Sequence record: MK234886 | DNA length: 64,000 bases | Direction: 5' to 3' (one strand) | Source of the DNA: Escherichia phage AnYang | Shown: positions 43,599 through 50,624 of the stretch, piece by piece | How positions within the stretch are numbered: the first letter of the stretch is position 1 | Layout: each line of letters begins with the position of its first letter | The notes under the pieces: model-generated | Database searches by the model: none | What the model was told of the DNA's origin: nothing | Seen by the model: only the letters and a program-made list of their open reading frames with translations | Translations under genes and position numbers: made by a program

Positions 43599-45416
43599 TT
43601 ACGACATCCAGGCCTTACGGAGTTGAGGGTCATTTCCGAGGAGCATTTCGAACTGTTCTTTCCAATCTTCAGGCAATTGAACCACATCAAATTTAGGGTC
43701 TTGAATCATTCGACGGTATTCAGCCTTCTCAAGAGAACCTAGTCCTTTGATATAACGAATAGAATGTTTTGGTAGAGAGTCCTTAGCTTTGGTATAACTA
43801 GGAACATCATAGAACCATTCCTGTTCTTTACCAACCTGGGCAATAATCACCGGAGTTTTACAGAATCGTACTCGACCCTGTTCGAACAATTCAGGCCATT
43901 GACTAAAGAAGGCTAGCAATGATGGATAAATCGAACCAGTACCATCCACATCAGCATCAGTCATGATAGCGATATTACGATAGTTAGTTTTCTCTGCGGG
44001 TTCGCCAATAACCAGTCCAGTGATTGCACAGATATCAAATAGTTCCTTGTTCTTCATGATATCTGTTGCTGTCATTCCCCAGGTATTCATAACCTTACCA
44101 CGTAATGGATACCCGCCTTGAAGGTCTTTATTACGAACTTCAATGAAAGGACCCATAGCGGAATCACCTTCGGTTAGGAACAGGGTTGTATCAGCATCTT
44201 TGCCGTATAAGTTAGCTTTAATATGCTTATGGACCTTGGCTTTAGAAGCTTTCTTAGCGGCTTTAGTTTCGGCAGCCTTTTCAGCTGCTAATTTACGTGC
44301 TAAAGCAGCTTCAACGATAGGCATAATCAACCCTTCGTCTTTAAGAATATACTGTGAGATTTTCTTTGCATCAATTTGAATATGGTTACGAATTTCACCG
44401 AATGGTGACGTCAAACGTTCTTTAGTCTGGGAATCAAAACGCATATTACTCATATCGCGAATGAACATCAGCATAGTTAAGCATTCTTTAACTCGTGCCT
44501 TACTTACTTCGATGCCTTTATATTTCTTCTTGATGCCTGGCAAGAGATGTTCGCAGATATCATCAAACACACATTCAACATGATGACCACCGTTCTTAGT
44601 ATGAATATTGTTCACATAAGTTAGGTGACGGAATCCATCTGGAGATGTAGTAAATGCCAATGAGACATTATCGGTTTCTTGAATTACTACATCTTTACCA
44701 AATTGATTGGCATACTTTTTAAAGTTGCCATCTACTTTTTTACCATTAAAAGTAAATTGAATATCAGGATAAATTACAGCTAGAGTTTTAAGACGATCTA
44801 GAGTAATATCCAGATAAATTTGTGATAGAGAGTTCTCTTCAAAATGATTAAAGTCTGGAGTGAATATAACCGAAGTACCCTTACCTTTAGATTTCTTAGT
44901 AGACCAACCTTTGTTTTCCATTCCATTGGAACAGTTAACTGTAATTTCATTCTCGCCATCAGAGGTGATGCCTGTGAACAAAACAGAGAAGATATTAGTT
45001 AAACTACTACCGACACCATTCATGCCGCCTGTCTTACGCTCTGCATCATCTCCAAAGTTACCACCTGCCTTTGGGATAGTCCATGCAGCTACAGGACCTG
45101 GGATTTGTTCACCATTTTGATCGATGACCATTGCTTGTGGAATACCACGACCATTATCAGAAACTGAAACCTGGTTATTCTTAATTTGAACATCAATTTT
45201 ATTTGCGAACTTAAAATTGGTGCGAATAGCTTCATCGACAGAGTTATCAATGATTTCGTCAATTAATTTAACCAGTCCAGGAACATAGTTCACCTGAGTA
45301 AAATTACCAAACAGGAATCGACCGTGAGCTTCATTAGCACTGGAGCCAATATACATCCCACTACGTTTTTTGATATGTTCAATGTCGGACAGTACTTTAA
45401 TTTCATTCTTAATCAT
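43599..45416 (-). CDS. 39: gp39 topoisomerase II large subunit (GyrB-like ATPase), unsplit
   Basis: 605 aa single ORF with GHKL ATPase and TOPRIM features; no gene 60 split. Confidence 0.9.
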   Translation of the reverse strand: MIKNEIKVLSDIEHIKKRSGMYIGSSANEAHGRFLFGNFTQVNYVPGLVKLIDEIIDNSVDEAIRTNFKFANKIDVQIKNNQVSVSDNGRGIPQAMVIDQNGEQIPGPVAAWTIPKAGGNFGDDAERKTGGMNGVGSSLTNIFSVLFTGITSDGENEITVNCSNGMENKGWSTKKSKGKGTSVIFTPDFNHFEENSLSQIYLDITLDRLKTLAVIYPDIQFTFNGKKVDGNFKKYANQFGKDVVIQETDNVSLAFTTSPDGFRHLTYVNNIHTKNGGHHVECVFDDICEHLLPGIKKKYKGIEVSKARVKECLTMLMFIRDMSNMRFDSQTKERLTSPFGEIRNHIQIDAKKISQYILKDEGLIMPIVEAALARKLAAEKAAETKAAKKASKAKVHKHIKANLYGKDADTTLFLTEGDSAMGPFIEVRNKDLQGGYPLRGKVMNTWGMTATDIMKNKELFDICAITGLVIGEPAEKTNYRNIAIMTDADVDGTGSIYPSLLAFFSQWPELFEQGRVRFCKTPVIIAQVGKEQEWFYDVPSYTKAKDSLPKHSIRYIKGLGSLEKAEYRRMIQDPKFDVVQLPEDWKEQFEMLLGNDPQLRKAWMS

Positions 45417-45464
45417 GTTATTTCCTCATGTAGTAGGAGAATATTATCCCATTTCACTTAAAGC

Positions 45465-45482
45465 ATAAAAGGGCCGAAGCCC
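45465..45482 (-). terminator. intrinsic terminator downstream of the lipoprotein gene
   Basis: GGGC-TTCG-GCCC hairpin followed by TTTT. Confidence 0.5.
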
Positions 45483-45743
45483 TTAATCAAATCGAATGGT
45501 CGACTTTTTAAAGAATAACCCGGAACAAACTGTCCCTTCAACCCTTTTACCTGTCGGCCCTACAGCAATAAAGCCTGTACGTTGGAAATCATCTTCAGAG
45601 CAGCCAAATAGGTTGTATCCTGTGATTTGGATTTGTTCGTAGCCATTTGCATCCAATACACGGGTAGCATTATCGGCATCAGTACAACCAACCAACGAAA
45701 CTGCTAGTACAAGAGCTGCAATAGAACGATTAATATATTTCAT
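45483..45743 (-). CDS. putative lipoprotein (86 aa)
   Basis: Signal peptide with lipobox LVGC; terminator hairpin downstream. Confidence 0.5.
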   Translation of the reverse strand: MKYINRSIAALVLAVSLVGCTDADNATRVLDANGYEQIQITGYNLFGCSEDDFQRTGFIAVGPTGKRVEGTVCSGLFFKKSTIRFD

Positions 45744-45749
45744 AATTTC

Positions 45750-45926
45750 TCACTTAGTCAGCAGGTCGTAAAACCCACCATTAACATGTTTAGGGGCCGA
45801 GACTAACCGAACAGCCAGCCGATGGCAATCAGGACAAACATCATTATCTCTTTCAGAGATTTTCTTGATTTTTTCGTATTCTTTTGCACAGTCTTCAGAT
45901 TGGCATTTATAATCATAAAGTGGCAT
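45750..45926 (-). CDS. FmdB-like zinc-ribbon protein (58 aa), not in ORF track
   Basis: Manual translation MPLYDYKCQSEDCAKEYEKIKKISERDNDVCPDCHRLAVRLVSAPKHVNGGFYDLLTK; CxxxxC...CPxC; SD AAGGAA. Confidence 0.4.
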   Translation of the reverse strand: MPLYDYKCQSEDCAKEYEKIKKISERDNDVCPDCHRLAVRLVSAPKHVNGGFYDLLTK

Positions 45927-45927
45927 A

Positions 45928-46335
45928 TTATTCCTTAAAGTGAGCTTTCAACATCTGGTAAACGGTCCAGGCTTCAGAGTTATTAGAGATAGTGATTTTA
46001 GTCAAAGGGAAATCACTCGGTTCGGACGGTTCATCACTATCATCGTAGTCATAATCACGGTCTTCATCCAATTCTTCGTCGCACTCAACTTCAACCATTT
46101 CGGTAAAAAATTTCCTCTCACTAGCGTATATAACCATATCTTTATTATCGCCGTAAACCAGGTCGAAGTTGGTTACACATCCATTTGAAATTTTAACCGG
46201 GGAAAAACCTTCACCTTCAATAATAACATCGGCTACAATATTATTGATACCTCTACGACGGAATTCAGCTTCTGCCGCATCATCTTTAAAATAGTACCAT
46301 TTACCTTTTTCAAATTCAGGTTCTTGATTAAGCAT
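45928..46335 (-). CDS. hypothetical protein with strongly acidic C-terminal segment
   Basis: ORF track trimmed to internal Met; C-terminal DEELDEDRDYDYDDSDEPSEPSDF. Confidence 0.4.
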   Translation of the reverse strand: MLNQEPEFEKGKWYYFKDDAAEAEFRRRGINNIVADVIIEGEGFSPVKISNGCVTNFDLVYGDNKDMVIYASERKFFTEMVEVECDEELDEDRDYDYDDSDEPSEPSDFPLTKITISNNSEAWTVYQMLKAHFKE

Positions 46336-46546
46336 TGTAAGTTTCCTTCCAGAAGTCGGTGCCTTCAGCAGTGATTTCACGGAACACTGCATAGATAGGG
46401 GTTTTATCGCCTTGATTTTCGTATACATAAACCGACGATAAATGAGAAAACGTATCAGAATGTTCCTTTTGAACCACGATTAAATCCGGGTTGAACAGAA
46501 CATCTTCAAATTCTTCACGAGTCGAGTTCACAGTAACTTTAGCCAT
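46328..46546 (-). CDS. hypothetical protein (72 aa)
   Basis: ORF track. Confidence 0.4.
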   Translation of the reverse strand: MAKVTVNSTREEFEDVLFNPDLIVVQKEHSDTFSHLSSVYVYENQGDKTPIYAVFREITAEGTDFWKETYNA

Positions 46547-46620
46547 TTTATTTTCCTCTCATTTGTTGATAGGGTAATCTTATCACTACCCTACCATATT
46601 GTATACTGTTTTTTTAAACT

Positions 46621-47187
46621 TTATGCGCGATGAATATTGGCATATTCAACAATAAAGCTTTCAGGGACCACCTTAAAGGTTCCAAGGAATACGATGTTAT
46701 AGAGTTTAACACCTTCTTCAACCCATTGGTCTGTGATATAACCGGACATGCTAGTGGTTTCATAAGTACCGAAAATTTCGTCATAGTATTCAAACGGCTT
46801 AGGGGAAACGAAAAAGACACCCGCGCCTAATTCCCATTTAAAATGGACACCCACATGAGACTGGTCAATAGTTTCAACGTCTTGAGCTACTACGCCACGG
46901 ATATCATTGCTTTCACATACATACCCATCATGGGATTCAACTTCTTCAACTACAGGAGCGATGTATCCAGTGAATTCAGTTGATTCCAAGAATTTAGCAC
47001 GCACATAAGCGAATTGAGTTTCAGTCTGGCCATTTTTAGGAATGATACGCACTTTTACTTCAGAATTTTCTTCACTGATACCTTCTTTAAGTTGGATGCT
47101 AACAACTTCAACTAAATGGCCTGCAGCTTTTGAACGAGACTTTTTGGATACACGAACAATACCGCCGATATCGGAAATAGTAATCAT
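46621..47187 (-). CDS. hypothetical protein, paralog A of a tandem pair
   Basis: C-terminal GYITDQWVEEGVKLYNIVFLGTFKVVPE shared with the adjacent ORF; own early promoter 47229..47257. Confidence 0.45.
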   Translation of the reverse strand: MITISDIGGIVRVSKKSRSKAAGHLVEVVSIQLKEGISEENSEVKVRIIPKNGQTETQFAYVRAKFLESTEFTGYIAPVVEEVESHDGYVCESNDIRGVVAQDVETIDQSHVGVHFKWELGAGVFFVSPKPFEYYDEIFGTYETTSMSGYITDQWVEEGVKLYNIVFLGTFKVVPESFIVEYANIHRA

Positions 47188-47228
47188 AATTTTCTCTCTT
47201 GGTTAAAAGTTTATTCTCCGTAAGAGCC

Positions 47229-47257
47229 ATTATAACATGGCTCTCGATAAAGTAAAC
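47229..47257 (-). promoter_or_regulatory. T4-type early promoter with stem-loop
   Basis: -35 GTTTAC (47252..47257), 17-nt spacer, -10 TATAAT (47229..47234); inverted repeat AGAGCCAT/ATGGCTCT. Confidence 0.6.
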
Positions 47258-47259
47258 TA

Positions 47260-47808
47260 CTAATTCAATACATTAACCACTGCATTACGAGGTACTACAC
47301 TAAAATCACCTGCATGGACAACGTTCAGCAGCTCAACACCGTCTTCAACCCACTGGTCTGTTACCCAACCACAGATAGGATTATCAAAAGGACGACGGAT
47401 AGACACAGCAACACACAGCAGGTCAGTAGGGTCTTGTTCTTCAACTTCTTGGAACAGGATGAACTCTGCTTCATAAACCAAGATTTTCTCTATTTTGTTA
47501 TTATCTAATCGACGGCCGTGGATGACGTAAGATTTGGCAAACCAGTCACTTTTGGTAAATTCTTCAACAATAAATTCGCCTTCGCCAAAAACATCAGTCA
47601 GAGTTTTATGGCCGGAAATCAAGGCATTAGTTTTAATTTCAGGTTCAACCAGTTTATAGGTTTTGCCGATTTTGATAGTCTGAGTAGTCATAGTGGTTTC
47701 CTTAATTTCCAGTGGTTTAACAGGGCATACATAAGTGCTTAAAACATCAAAATCAATCAGTTTAGCTGCCGGATTTGGAGTGTATTTAGGGTTGTAATTA
47801 AATTTCAT
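47260..47808 (-). CDS. hypothetical protein, paralog B of a tandem pair
   Basis: C-terminal CGWVTDQWVEDGVELLNVVHAGDFSVVPR shared with paralog A. Confidence 0.45.
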   Translation of the reverse strand: MKFNYNPKYTPNPAAKLIDFDVLSTYVCPVKPLEIKETTMTTQTIKIGKTYKLVEPEIKTNALISGHKTLTDVFGEGEFIVEEFTKSDWFAKSYVIHGRRLDNNKIEKILVYEAEFILFQEVEEQDPTDLLCVAVSIRRPFDNPICGWVTDQWVEDGVELLNVVHAGDFSVVPRNAVVNVLN

Positions 47809-48314
47809 ATTGTTCTCAATTCAATAAAATCTACGAGTTCAGCATGGGATTTGCGGAACATTACTTGGCGGCCACCAATGACAACCTCATCTTCTGGTAT
47901 TTCGTAAACAGCAAGATAGAATCCTTTAGAAGATAATTCAGCACGCTCTTCACGAGTAAACCAGCGCATCATATCATACTCGCTGGCAAAGGCAAAATGG
48001 TAGAGGTTAACAAACCAACCTGGAATGTAGTTATCTACACCTTTATAATCTTCATGTTCGAATTTGGTTTTAATTACCATATTAGAATTTTTAACCAACA
48101 ATTCGTCTTGACTTGGTAGTGGAATATTTTTATTATTGGTATGATGGTGTCTAAAATTAGGTCTGTCGAAACCTACTTCCAATAACCAACCTTCACTCCA
48201 TTCGTCAAATGAGCCTCTATACGGGGTTAATTGGCGGCATTGTTGACGAGTGATTGCGATAACATCGCTGTTGTCTAGGATACTGAACGATGACTCCACT
48301 CGATAAATTTTCAT
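47805..48314 (-). CDS. hypothetical protein (169 aa)
   Basis: ORF track; promoter 48342..48370. Confidence 0.45.
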   Translation of the reverse strand: MKIYRVESSFSILDNSDVIAITRQQCRQLTPYRGSFDEWSEGWLLEVGFDRPNFRHHHTNNKNIPLPSQDELLVKNSNMVIKTKFEHEDYKGVDNYIPGWFVNLYHFAFASEYDMMRWFTREERAELSSKGFYLAVYEIPEDEVVIGGRQVMFRKSHAELVDFIELRTI

Positions 48315-48341
48315 TTTGTTCTCCTCATGTTGATAGGGTAG

Positions 48342-48370
48342 ATAATATCATGTCATGAGGAGAAGTAAAC
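48342..48370 (-). promoter_or_regulatory. T4-type early promoter with stem-loop
   Basis: -35 GTTTAC (48365..48370), -10 TATTAT; inverted repeat CTCCTCATG/CATGAGGAG. Confidence 0.5.
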
Positions 48371-48374
48371 ACTT

Positions 48375-49049
48375 TTATCGATTTTTTACACTTAACGGGT
48401 CAGGATTCTCAGGGACATCTTCCAGGCCCAAGGCGTATCGTTGGGCATATTTAAGCATCAAGATATCCTTAGCACAGTCATGGATGGAGTCATGAGCAAC
48501 AAAGCCGTTCAATGTTCCGTTAGGCAGAGGACACATGCTCAATCCACGAGTCAATGAATATGCTTCAATAGCCGTACGGATGTCACGTTGGTTCCAGAAT
48601 TTAACCGGTTCTAATTTGCTGGTATCGATTTCATTCTCAGGGACACCTTCAGAACGATAAGCATCGCGAATAAGGTCGACTAAGATAGGAAAGTCAAATG
48701 ACATTCCACGACACCACATCTGTGATTTCCATTGGTCCACTTCGTTTTTACGGCAGTATTCCAGGAAATTACCAAGGCCGATAGAAGTGCTCACATCAAT
48801 TTCAGATGGCGCCAGGTTTTTACGTGCTTCAGGCCCTTGCTCTTTCCACCACTGTAACGTGCTTTTAGAAAACAGTCGTCTATCACGTTGAGAAGCGAGG
48901 TCAAATTTAATACGAAGGCCCCGTCGAGTAAGCTCTTCAAACGTTTCTACAACCTCTGGATTAGGGTCATAAGCAATTACCGCGAGGTCGATAACCGCCG
49001 CGTTTTGGGTAGTGGCAAAGGTTTCAAAGTCAATAATTATATCTTTCAT
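48375..49049 (-). CDS. dexA: DexA-like 3'-5' exonuclease A
   Basis: 224 aa with DnaQ-like N-terminus IIDFETF; located upstream of dda as in T4. Confidence 0.65.
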   Translation of the reverse strand: MKDIIIDFETFATTQNAAVIDLAVIAYDPNPEVVETFEELTRRGLRIKFDLASQRDRRLFSKSTLQWWKEQGPEARKNLAPSEIDVSTSIGLGNFLEYCRKNEVDQWKSQMWCRGMSFDFPILVDLIRDAYRSEGVPENEIDTSKLEPVKFWNQRDIRTAIEAYSLTRGLSMCPLPNGTLNGFVAHDSIHDCAKDILMLKYAQRYALGLEDVPENPDPLSVKNR

Positions 49050-49285
49050 TTAACATACCTCATAAGGTCACGGATTTGACCGACGGTGTAGTCTTCAATA
49101 TAAACCGAAGAGATATTGTCGTCCATCAGTTTTTGTACAGCAATAAAATCGTATTCAATCTCTTTAAGAGAATGCAAGACCTTATGAGCCTTGCCACGGA
49201 TATTGGTATCGTCTTGGTTGACCTTAATAATATATTCTGTTTCAAATTTCAACTTATAAAATTGGTCTTTAGTTACTTTAATCAT
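49046..49285 (-). CDS. hypothetical protein; start probably ATG 49285
   Basis: ORF track 49046..49336 overlaps the dda 3' end; an internal Met lies just past the dda stop. Confidence 0.35.
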   Translation of the reverse strand: MIKVTKDQFYKLKFETEYIIKVNQDDTNIRGKAHKVLHSLKEIEYDFIAVQKLMDDNISSVYIEDYTVGQIRDLMRYVK

Positions 49286-49292
49286 ATTTTCC

Positions 49293-50624
49293 TCAAACGT
49301 AATAAGCATCAGTACGAGCACGAGTAATACTAACATAAGCTAGCTGTGAAGCTAAACTCACATCAGCCATATGCATACACGGCGTATAGATGAAACTGTT
49401 CTGGACCGTGAGGCCTTGGGATTTATGAACAGTGCTCACAGGAAGAGCTCGAACCTTAGTAAACATTCTCTTAGCTTTCCAAAAATCAGCCCACTTAGGT
49501 TTCTTACCACTACCACGCATGGCTTTGTACTCAGTAGCAACCTTAGCCAAGAAATAATGGAACTTCTCAACCGAAGCCTCATCAATAACCTTTAAGTGCT
49601 CTACGTAATACTCATCATCTTCATCGATAGATTCTACTTGGAGGTCCCAGTAATTAATCATTTGTCGAGTGCCTACATCCTTAGCAGACAAGAACAATGA
49701 GGTGTGGTTCACATCTAGAATACGAACCATTTGACCATTATTAAAAATGGTTTCAGAGAATTTCTTACCGTCGTATTCAAGTTCCTTCATAAAAGGCTCT
49801 TGCATTACCAGGATTTCACCTTTGATATAAGGTGCATCGGTTTCGTAAAGCTTTTTACGAATAATGCTATTCAGCTTTTCAACCGATTTATTTGTATAAG
49901 CAAACATCCTATTTTCAAATAAGGCATCCGCGTCTTTTACAATGGAAAAATAATTCATCATAAAATCTTTTAAAGCGGTTTGGGATTTAAAGCCATGAAC
50001 ACCATGTCCTTCGAATACACAATCTCTAAACCATCCACCATTACGGATTTCAGTAGCAACCTCAATGATAGGAGCATTACTACGCATTACTTCGGTCAAA
50101 TGCAATTGCTTGATTTTTGGATGAGTAAAGAACGGAGACAACTGTGGACTACCATCACTTCCAGGTTCCACTGGCTGTAGCTGAGCTCTGTCGCCAATCC
50201 CTAATACAGTACACCATGGAGGCACGGAAGATTCAATAATCTTAAACAGCTTACCGTCAATCATCGAGCCTTCATCAACAACTAGCACATTACATTTACT
50301 CAAATCAGGAGCTTCGCGTTGTTCAAAGATGTCCTGGTCTTCGTATGTGGTAGGGTTAATCTTTAAGATTCTATGGATTGTTGATGCTTCTTGACCTGCG
50401 AGTTTCGACAACACCTTTTTGGCCGCATGAGTGGGTGCAGTCAAAATAACTCCGAGTTCACCATTCTTGACTAGATGGTCAAGAATAAATTTGGTAAGGG
50501 TTGTTTTACCCGTACCGGCTGGACCGTTCAATGTAATCCATTCGCCCTTACGTCGTTTAATAGCTTCAATGATTTCTTTAAAAGCCGTCCTCTGGCCAAT
50601 GTTCAAGTCTTCAAATGTAATCAT
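49293..50624 (-). CDS. dda: Dda DNA helicase (SF1B)
   Basis: 443 aa; Walker A GPAGTGKTT; close match to remembered T4 Dda throughout. Confidence 0.9.
   Translation of the reverse strand: MITFEDLNIGQRTAFKEIIEAIKRRKGEWITLNGPAGTGKTTLTKFILDHLVKNGELGVILTAPTHAAKKVLSKLAGQEASTIHRILKINPTTYEDQDIFEQREAPDLSKCNVLVVDEGSMIDGKLFKIIESSVPPWCTVLGIGDRAQLQPVEPGSDGSPQLSPFFTHPKIKQLHLTEVMRSNAPIIEVATEIRNGGWFRDCVFEGHGVHGFKSQTALKDFMMNYFSIVKDADALFENRMFAYTNKSVEKLNSIIRKKLYETDAPYIKGEILVMQEPFMKELEYDGKKFSETIFNNGQMVRILDVNHTSLFLSAKDVGTRQMINYWDLQVESIDEDDEYYVEHLKVIDEASVEKFHYFLAKVATEYKAMRGSGKKPKWADFWKAKRMFTKVRALPVSTVHKSQGLTVQNSFIYTPCMHMADVSLASQLAYVSITRARTDAYYV

Follow-up and report, generated by a model that had tools for sequence, protein, structure and literature searches.

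The motB and motB.1 genes of the Dhakavirus analysed here are very probably two early genes whose products share a C-terminal barrel domain and carry different N-terminal heads, an arrangement that would have come about by an old duplication followed by exchange of the heads. The observation of a shared tail is correct but ordinary, as the pair is already known from the Hinton laboratory (Patterson-West et al., Viruses 2021;13:84, section 3.2; PMC7827196), who described T4 MotB and MotB.1 as having a conserved C-terminal domain and different N-terminal domains, suggested that motB or motB.1 may have arisen through duplication of the other, and reported both genes in 40 other phage genomes. The shared tail by itself thus adds little to what has been published; the findings could matter modestly for work on T4 early genes, with regard to the fold of the tail, the size of its family and a truncation in the T4 record.

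The motB locus

The window, by which we mean the whole 64-kb stretch of DNA that was analysed, is assigned to a Dhakavirus, that is, a JS98/IME08-like T-even phage. Its DNA is 98.4% identical to that of Escherichia phage C6 and 88-95% identical to those of IME341, IME08 and JS98 (all JS98-like), and IME08 is classified in the genus Dhakavirus, Tevenvirinae. All genes in the motB part of the window lie on the minus strand, in the order 39-39.1-39.2-goF-cef-motB-motB.1-motB.2-dexA that is common to the window, IME08 and T4; the annotated order in IME08 is 39, 39.1, 39.2, goF, cef, motB, motB.1, motB.2, dexA, dexA.1, dda. The genes are as follows.

43599-45416, minus strand: gene 39, topoisomerase subunit (ORF list)
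45483-45743, minus strand: 39.1 (ORF list)
45750-45926, minus strand: 39.2, zinc ribbon (ORF list)
45928-46428, minus strand: goF, longest ORF, 166 aa; three genes downstream of motB.1
46328-46546, minus strand: cef (ORF list)
46621-47187, minus strand: motB, 188 aa plus stop, 'modifier of transcription' (ORF, PF17613, phrog_1671, IME08 annotation)
47260-47808, minus strand: motB.1, 182 aa plus stop (ORF, phrog_2333, IME08 and JS98 annotation)
47805-48314, minus strand: motB.2, 169 aa (phrog_1106, 2.2e-52; IME08 synteny)
48375-49049, minus strand: dexA (ORF list); a 96-aa ORF and then dda lie beyond it

The pair thus sits between gene 39 and dexA, where a preliminary description of this DNA had placed it. 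Read as its longest ORF (166 aa), goF would have about 100 nt in common with cef; since the goF/cef overlap is 8 nt in the annotation of the PSD2002 homologue and the GoF family profile match begins near aa 38, goF probably starts at Met32 (ATG at 46335). The sole match in an Rfam scan of 45400-49400 was a sub-threshold CRISPR-DR at 49152-49188 (22.6 bits against 39), which was judged to be a chance match.

The shared C-terminal tail

The preliminary description had reported that the 188-aa and 182-aa ORFs share the C-terminal motif G[YW][IV]TDQWVE[ED]GV.L.N[IV]V..G.F.VVP, and both copies are present on the minus strand, in MotB as GYITDQWVEEGVKLYNIVFLGTFKVVP (aa 149-175, 46663-46743) and in MotB.1 as GWVTDQWVEDGVELLNVVHAGDFSVVP (aa 147-173, 47290-47370). 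The pairwise alignment that it had proposed as a check gives a similarity far above chance: by BLASTP only the last 40 residues of the two proteins align, with 19/40 identical (48%) and an E value of 2e-11, and the two family profiles, aligned with each other, give a probability of 98.6% with an E value of 1e-15. The heads alone, compared by hhalign with the tails removed, do not match significantly (E 0.3-0.4), so that the N-terminal halves are indeed diverged at the sequence level, as had been said. Given these E values for the tails and for the heads, we take the similarity of MotB and MotB.1 to be real and, at the sequence level, limited to the C-terminal part. The two tails have the same predicted strand order in the MotB and MotB.1 models, and paralogy of the two genes through their common C-terminal domain is supported. 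An end-to-end alignment of the families had raised the possibility that a single domain diverged into the two heads, a reading dropped because the heads-alone comparison was not significant.

At the nucleotide level, a near-identical 21-nt stretch (TCTTCAACCCAyTGGTCTGT), which encodes (E)DQWVE, occurs in both tails, at 47348-47368 and 46720-46740 (plus strand). Over such a stretch the two genes could occasionally recombine by homology, and deletion remnants like P0234, a protein of 43 aa in which the start of MotB.2 is fused to the tail, fit a recombination-prone region. Another remnant, a 29-aa peptide of RB69, was noted in the 2021 paper (PMC7827196).

MotB

Family matches identify the 188-aa protein as MotB, the orthologue of T4 MotB. 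It gives a full-length match to Pfam PF17613 (E 8.8e-60, 201.7 bits against a curated cutoff of 25), matches phrog_1671 over positions 3-166 of 166 (E 1.7e-69), and is 54% identical to T4 MotB over 181 aa (E 6e-66). An N-terminal KOW-like barrel is joined to a C-terminal GYITDQWVE barrel, and the gene occupies the cef - motB - motB.1 position with a preceding early promoter. Three parts can be distinguished.

46984-47187, minus strand: N-terminal domain, aa 1-68; basic KOW/SH3-like beta barrel carrying RVSKKSRSKAAG
46861-46983, minus strand: linker, aa 69-109; acidic insertion of about 24 aa, predicted to be disordered
46624-46860, minus strand: C-terminal domain, aa 110-188; five-stranded barrel, of which the last 45 aa or so are the tail common with MotB.1

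In the AF2 model (mean pLDDT 73) there is a barrel of four to five strands (residues 1-68) and then a disordered stretch (residues 71-109, pLDDT <50), and the C-terminal domain, modelled with a pLDDT of about 90, has strands at 123-136, 140-157, 160-167 and 170-175, followed by a 3-10 turn and a further strand at 179-182. From the models, the tail common to both proteins would be a small barrel of SH3-like topology. The C-terminal domain of MotB had been assigned as an OB-fold cold-shock-like DNA-binding domain (PMC7827196); our analysis does not bear out this assignment, which would call for OB topology (a helix between strands 3 and 4) in a five-stranded barrel and a basic face for binding nucleic acid. 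A sequence search of solved structures with MotB and MotB.1 returned nothing significant, the best E values (0.04-0.1) being to unrelated proteins.

The charge of the parts bears on which of them contacts DNA. The tails of the two proteins are acidic (pI 4.2 and 4.9) and the MotB N-terminal domain, with its RVSKKSRSKAAG patch, is basic (pI 9.5), and for these reasons we infer that the head rather than the tail is the main DNA-binding part of MotB; a tail that is acidic and probably SH3-like points in the same direction. The linker has a net charge of -9, and the acidic insertion gives MotB as a whole an acidic pI (4.9, against 9.2 in T4). The inserted sequence in this phage, VVEEVESHDGYVCESNDIRGVVAQD (within 46861-46983), is absent from the T4 MotB alignment and is patchily present or absent among MotB homologues; its core, DGYV..(D/N)(V/I), is similar to the linker motif found in MotB.1-like proteins with a KOW head.

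MotB.1 and its start site

The 182-aa protein is identified in the same manner as MotB.1: it matches phrog_2333 with an E value of 2e-85 (aa 1-182 on positions 1-210 of 210), matches PF17613 with 35.2 bits over aa 137-177 only, carries the MotB.1-subtype tail (VELLNVVHAG..SVVPR), and is encoded directly upstream of motB. Among the matches listed, all of the 120 homologue clusters are 176-250 aa in length and cover 91-100% of the query. Its parts are the following.

47692-47808, minus strand: N-terminal extension, aa 1-39; carries LIDFDVLSTYVCPVKP
47434-47691, minus strand: head module, aa 40-125; probably GoF-type, 'LSm-like', beginning IKIGKTYKLVEPE and ending ILVYEAEFILFQEVEE
47263-47433, minus strand: tail, aa 126-182; DPTDLLC... 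GWVTDQWVEDGVELLNVVHAGDFSVVPRNAVVNVLN, a shortened copy of the barrel of the MotB C-terminal domain

The AF2 model has a mean pLDDT of 66, with residues 1-42 disordered (pLDDT about 33) and residues 43-124 forming a mixed alpha/beta head of a helix plus strands, at modest confidence (pLDDT about 76 in the best model only); residues 134-181 are modelled with the strand order of the MotB C-terminal domain and a shorter first hairpin. Homology of the head to GoF is held with moderate confidence, from profile comparisons. Residues 44-126 match phrog_622, the family of the window's GoF, with an E value of 8.9e-6, and hhalign of diverse head modules against GoF N-terminal alignments gives an E value of 4.4e-5 over 72 columns with 69% probability; this more diverse alignment replaced a shallow HMM of the head module, with which the match to GoF was marginal (E 0.002 for one target). 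The relation is visible only with profiles, BLASTP of MotB.1 against the window's GoF giving no similarity (E 11), and the top matches in a BFVD fold search included only MotB/MotB.1 relatives and KOW proteins, with no GoF. The sequence-profile results agree with Kim et al. (CSBJ 2025;27:2051; PMC12152347), who described the MotB.1 head as a beta-barrel, termed LSm-like, that is common to GoF and Frd.2.

The long form of MotB.1, initiated at Met1 (47808), is likely. The alternative start at Met40 (ATG 47691-47689), which would make the upstream 117 nt an untranslated leader possibly with its own promoter, is rather unlikely, although it has several points in its favour: a strong Shine-Dalgarno sequence (AAGGA, 47703-47699) stands 7 nt before the ATG, the T4-type protein has its first residue right at the homologous module, the first 42 residues are predicted to be disordered, the excess of variable sites at third codon positions in codons 1-39 is weak (10/9/15), and a weak TTGATT-17-TATGTA match can be read by eye in 47692-47808. 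Set against these, the promoter scan calls no minus-strand site in that interval, the frame is open in 120/120 of the homologue clusters listed, even where 15/39 residues differ, the DxDVxSxY motif of the extension (aa 19-26) recurs inside longer, KOW-headed relatives, and coupled genes typically overlap in the ATGA fashion seen between motB.2 and motB.1. A second, shorter product in addition to the long form is possible. Some MotB.1 homologues from other phages (P0026, P0044, P0083-P0087 and P0224) are longer, at 245-250 aa: in place of MKFNYNP... they have a different N-terminus some 80 residues long, MNTFDxNAKYIVTP..., which continues in frame into LIDFDV... and could be an extra head or a fusion to the gene upstream.

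Family breadth and probable domain shuffling

The tail profile, 47 positions long, was run against 1.84 billion cluster representatives; at E <=1e-3 it recovered 33 proteins, of which about 28 are genuine (clusters at 50% identity); they are 43-251 aa in length and the tail is C-terminal in all of them. In the phage collection the tail was found at 1232 places in 764 records, all from T4-like phages of enterobacteria. The tail family is small and closed, with only two head types in its 28 or so clusters. KOW-like heads occur both with MotB-type and with MotB.1-type tails (examples are P0217, P0222, P0226 and P0230); the alignment of P0230 to PF17613 takes in positions 11-155, and P0231 scores above the Pfam KOW cutoff. 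The GoF-type module is present in other tail proteins in one or two copies, P0218 having two. The DxDVxSxY linker motif is likewise variable in position, lying directly before DPTDLLC in KOW-headed proteins, before the module in the MotB.1 of the window and after the module in P0225.

The preliminary description had interpreted the pair as a duplication with a conserved tail and a variable head. The paralogy of the tails bears this out, but the heads are distinct domains (KOW-like and GoF-type) and not merely diverged ones, which argues that domains were shuffled and that the copies did not simply diverge once duplicated. As read from the sequences, the variable order of module and linker is the mark left by domains inserted into, and shuffled on, an old scaffold of KOW, linker and barrel. 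Both tail types, that of MotB and that of MotB.1, have been kept across genera as old, separately conserved lineages; they are not rapidly diversifying copies. The origin of the pair would thus lie in an old duplication of a tail-bearing gene with exchange or insertion of head domains, and not in divergence of a single head.

Predicted promoters and intergenic elements

Three elements were identified between the genes.

47229-47256, minus strand: predicted early-type sigma-70 promoter for motB; TTTACT, 16 nt, TGnTATAAT; 10/12 consensus matches
48342-48369, minus strand: early-type promoter-like site upstream of motB.2; TTTACT, 16 nt, TG-extended TATTAT
47223-47245, minus strand: inverted repeat GAGAGCCAT / ATGGCTCT, enclosing the motB -10 hexamer, directly after the motB.1 stop

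Each gene of the pair had been credited with its own promoter. This holds for motB, which has a strong early-type site in the 72-bp gap upstream of it, with a predicted transcription start near 47222, but not for motB.1, for which the nearest promoter-like site is that upstream of motB.2. The T4 equivalent of the motB promoter is in the same place (TTTACA-17-TATAAT, 11/12 consensus matches), and the element is present in 11/11 related loci from which the motB.1-motB gap was recovered (that of locus L005 was not); we infer that the site at 47229-47256 functions as a promoter. There is no gap upstream of motB.1, whose ATG overlaps the motB.2 stop as ATGA (47805-47808). Because of this overlap, and because the next promoter-like site precedes motB.2, motB.2 and motB.1 probably form one transcription unit. 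Expression of motB would be from its own early promoter, and that of motB.1 most likely together with motB.2 from the promoter upstream of the latter.

The inverted repeat folds at -16.3 kcal/mol (z -4.2), and T4-type loci (L003, L009-L012) have a different stem, GGGACCA / TGGTCCC, at the same place, also with z -4.2, so that a stem around the motB -10 hexamer is kept in Dhakavirus-type and T4-type loci despite the differing sequence. The hairpin was rejected as an intrinsic terminator, since no T-run follows it; it might be a 3'-end stabiliser of the upstream transcript or a modulator of the promoter.

A frameshift in the T4 reference record

The T4 reference (NC_000866.4 / AF158101.6) contains one extra G in motB.1, GATTGGAAG against GATTGAAG, which ends the annotated T4 MotB.1 at 119 aa (...GWVTDQWIGRWR followed by a stop), inside the shared motif. 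This was seen by comparing T4 NC_000866.4 7142-7650 (L003 4143-4651) with T4 MT984581.1 (L012 310-741), the sole record compared base by base, which is without the extra G and encodes a 143-aa MotB.1 with a complete tail. Thirteen other T4 records (including T4T), as well as RB55 and RB59, match over 517 and not 518 nt, with 99.6-99.8% identity. The extra G is mentioned in neither of the two Hinton-laboratory papers (PMC7827196, PMC12152347), and a mass of 13.8 kDa is quoted for MotB.1 in PMC12152347, for which reasons constructs designed from the T4 reference may encode a truncated MotB.1. As the truncation falls inside the shared domain, it is relevant for anyone cloning motB.1 from that record.

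Possible functions

Work by others has shown that T4 MotB coats DNA nonspecifically, disturbs H-NS complexes and de-represses some of the genes in the H-NS regulon. Its binding to DNA is tight and nonspecific; it alters the H-NS footprint, co-purifies with H-NS and StpA on DNA, up-regulates 75 host genes of which about a third are H-NS-regulated, is toxic when overproduced, and confers a fitness benefit with a modestly larger burst size (Patterson-West et al., Viruses 2018;10:343, PMC6070864; PMC7827196). Amber and deletion mutants of T4 motB.1 plate as efficiently as normal and show no change in burst size or latent period, and MotB.1, unlike GoF(D25Y), does not stabilise a reporter RNA (PMC12152347).

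The MotB of the window may act like T4 MotB by way of its basic KOW head; that its DNA affinity equals that of the T4 protein is an assumption, given its pI of 4.9, an identity of only 54% and data that come from T4 MotB. Both proteins end in the same small beta-barrel, with an SH3-like topology in the models and the G(Y/W)(I/V)TDQWVE(D/E)G motif; in MotB it comes after a KOW-like barrel, which is basic, and a disordered linker, which is acidic, and in MotB.1 after a probably GoF-type 'LSm-like' barrel. In the mechanism that we propose, the acidic shared tail would be a common docking or assembly module and not the main nucleic-acid surface, and the heads would supply the nucleic-acid contacts, the KOW head with DNA and the LSm-like head possibly with RNA or another partner. 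A more specific version, to which we attach little probability, is that MotB and MotB.1 dock, or form hetero-oligomers, through the shared barrel and so reach one and the same target, such as H-NS/StpA filaments, where the DNA-binding KOW and RNA-binding LSm-like heads would jointly affect the host nucleoid. Such joint action may have escaped the published tests of MotB.1, because the product of constructs made from the T4 reference lacks the last three strands of the barrel.

The preliminary description had called the pattern of conserved tail and variable head typical of specificity-diversified accessory or anti-defence proteins. Spelled out, the genes would be a recently diversifying module of this kind, in which a constant effector tail is joined to variable heads, each specific for a different defence protein of the host. 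We regard this as improbable and found no direct support for it. The genes do lie in a dispensable and variable early region, their heads differ and are exchanged between relatives, and many phages have two or three tail-bearing genes (the 1232 places in 764 records). MotB also counteracts H-NS, a xenogeneic silencer that may be counted as a host defence (PMC7827196), and the target might be absent from laboratory strains, which would explain the missing motB.1 phenotype (PMC12152347). Diversification of specificity, however, would lead one to expect many heads, and essentially two types were found in the 1.84 billion representatives; within each type the proteins are well conserved across genera, with 85% mean column identity in the A1 alignment, the DNA binding of MotB is nonspecific, and T4 lacking motB.1 grows normally. 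In the literature searched there is no report of MotB or MotB.1 inhibiting or triggering a defence system; MotB is mentioned there just in passing, for its anti-H-NS or DNA-coating action. MotB, MotB.1 and MotB.2 had no match in PADLOC-DB at E values up to 0.1, a weak argument as PADLOC covers defence and not anti-defence. The alternative that the motif is a short convergent or chance resemblance between unrelated genes can be dismissed as having next to no probability, for although the similarity is limited to about 40 residues and there is no signal between the heads, the alignment statistics (E 2e-11 pairwise, 1e-15 between profiles) already refute it, both proteins are above the PF17613 gathering score, the intermediates P0217, P0222 and P0230 join a MotB-like KOW head to a MotB.1-type tail, and the predicted strand order is common to both tails.

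Comparison with known systems

Among binders of nucleic acids or peptides that are built of tandem small beta-barrels, Spt5 KOW6-KOW7, the NusG/RfaH C-terminal domain and the 53BP1 tandem Tudor resemble the proteins described here in fold only, with no detectable sequence relation, and we do not claim that MotB and MotB.1 belong with them. T4 GoF (ComC-alpha) and Frd.2 have an N-terminal barrel that is probably homologous to the MotB.1 head (phrog_622; hhalign; PMC12152347), but unlike MotB.1 they have other C-terminal parts, without the TDQWVE tail.

The T4 proteins are the nearest counterparts. T4 MotB, like that of the window, is encoded between cef and motB.1 behind the same early promoter, and has a KOW-like head with an SRSKAAG patch, a head also described in PMC7827196, and the same C-terminal domain; the protein of the window differs in its acidic disordered linker insertion of about 24 residues and in its pI (4.9 against 9.2). 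The window's MotB.1 has a 39-residue N-terminal extension overlapping motB.2 that distinguishes it from T4 MotB.1, and its head is strongly diverged from that of T4, with no BLAST similarity before aa 104. The T4 tail is 58% identical over aa 104-154, the rest matching after correction of the T4 frameshift, and the two MotB.1 proteins have in common the same locus and, probably, a head module of the GoF/Frd.2 type.
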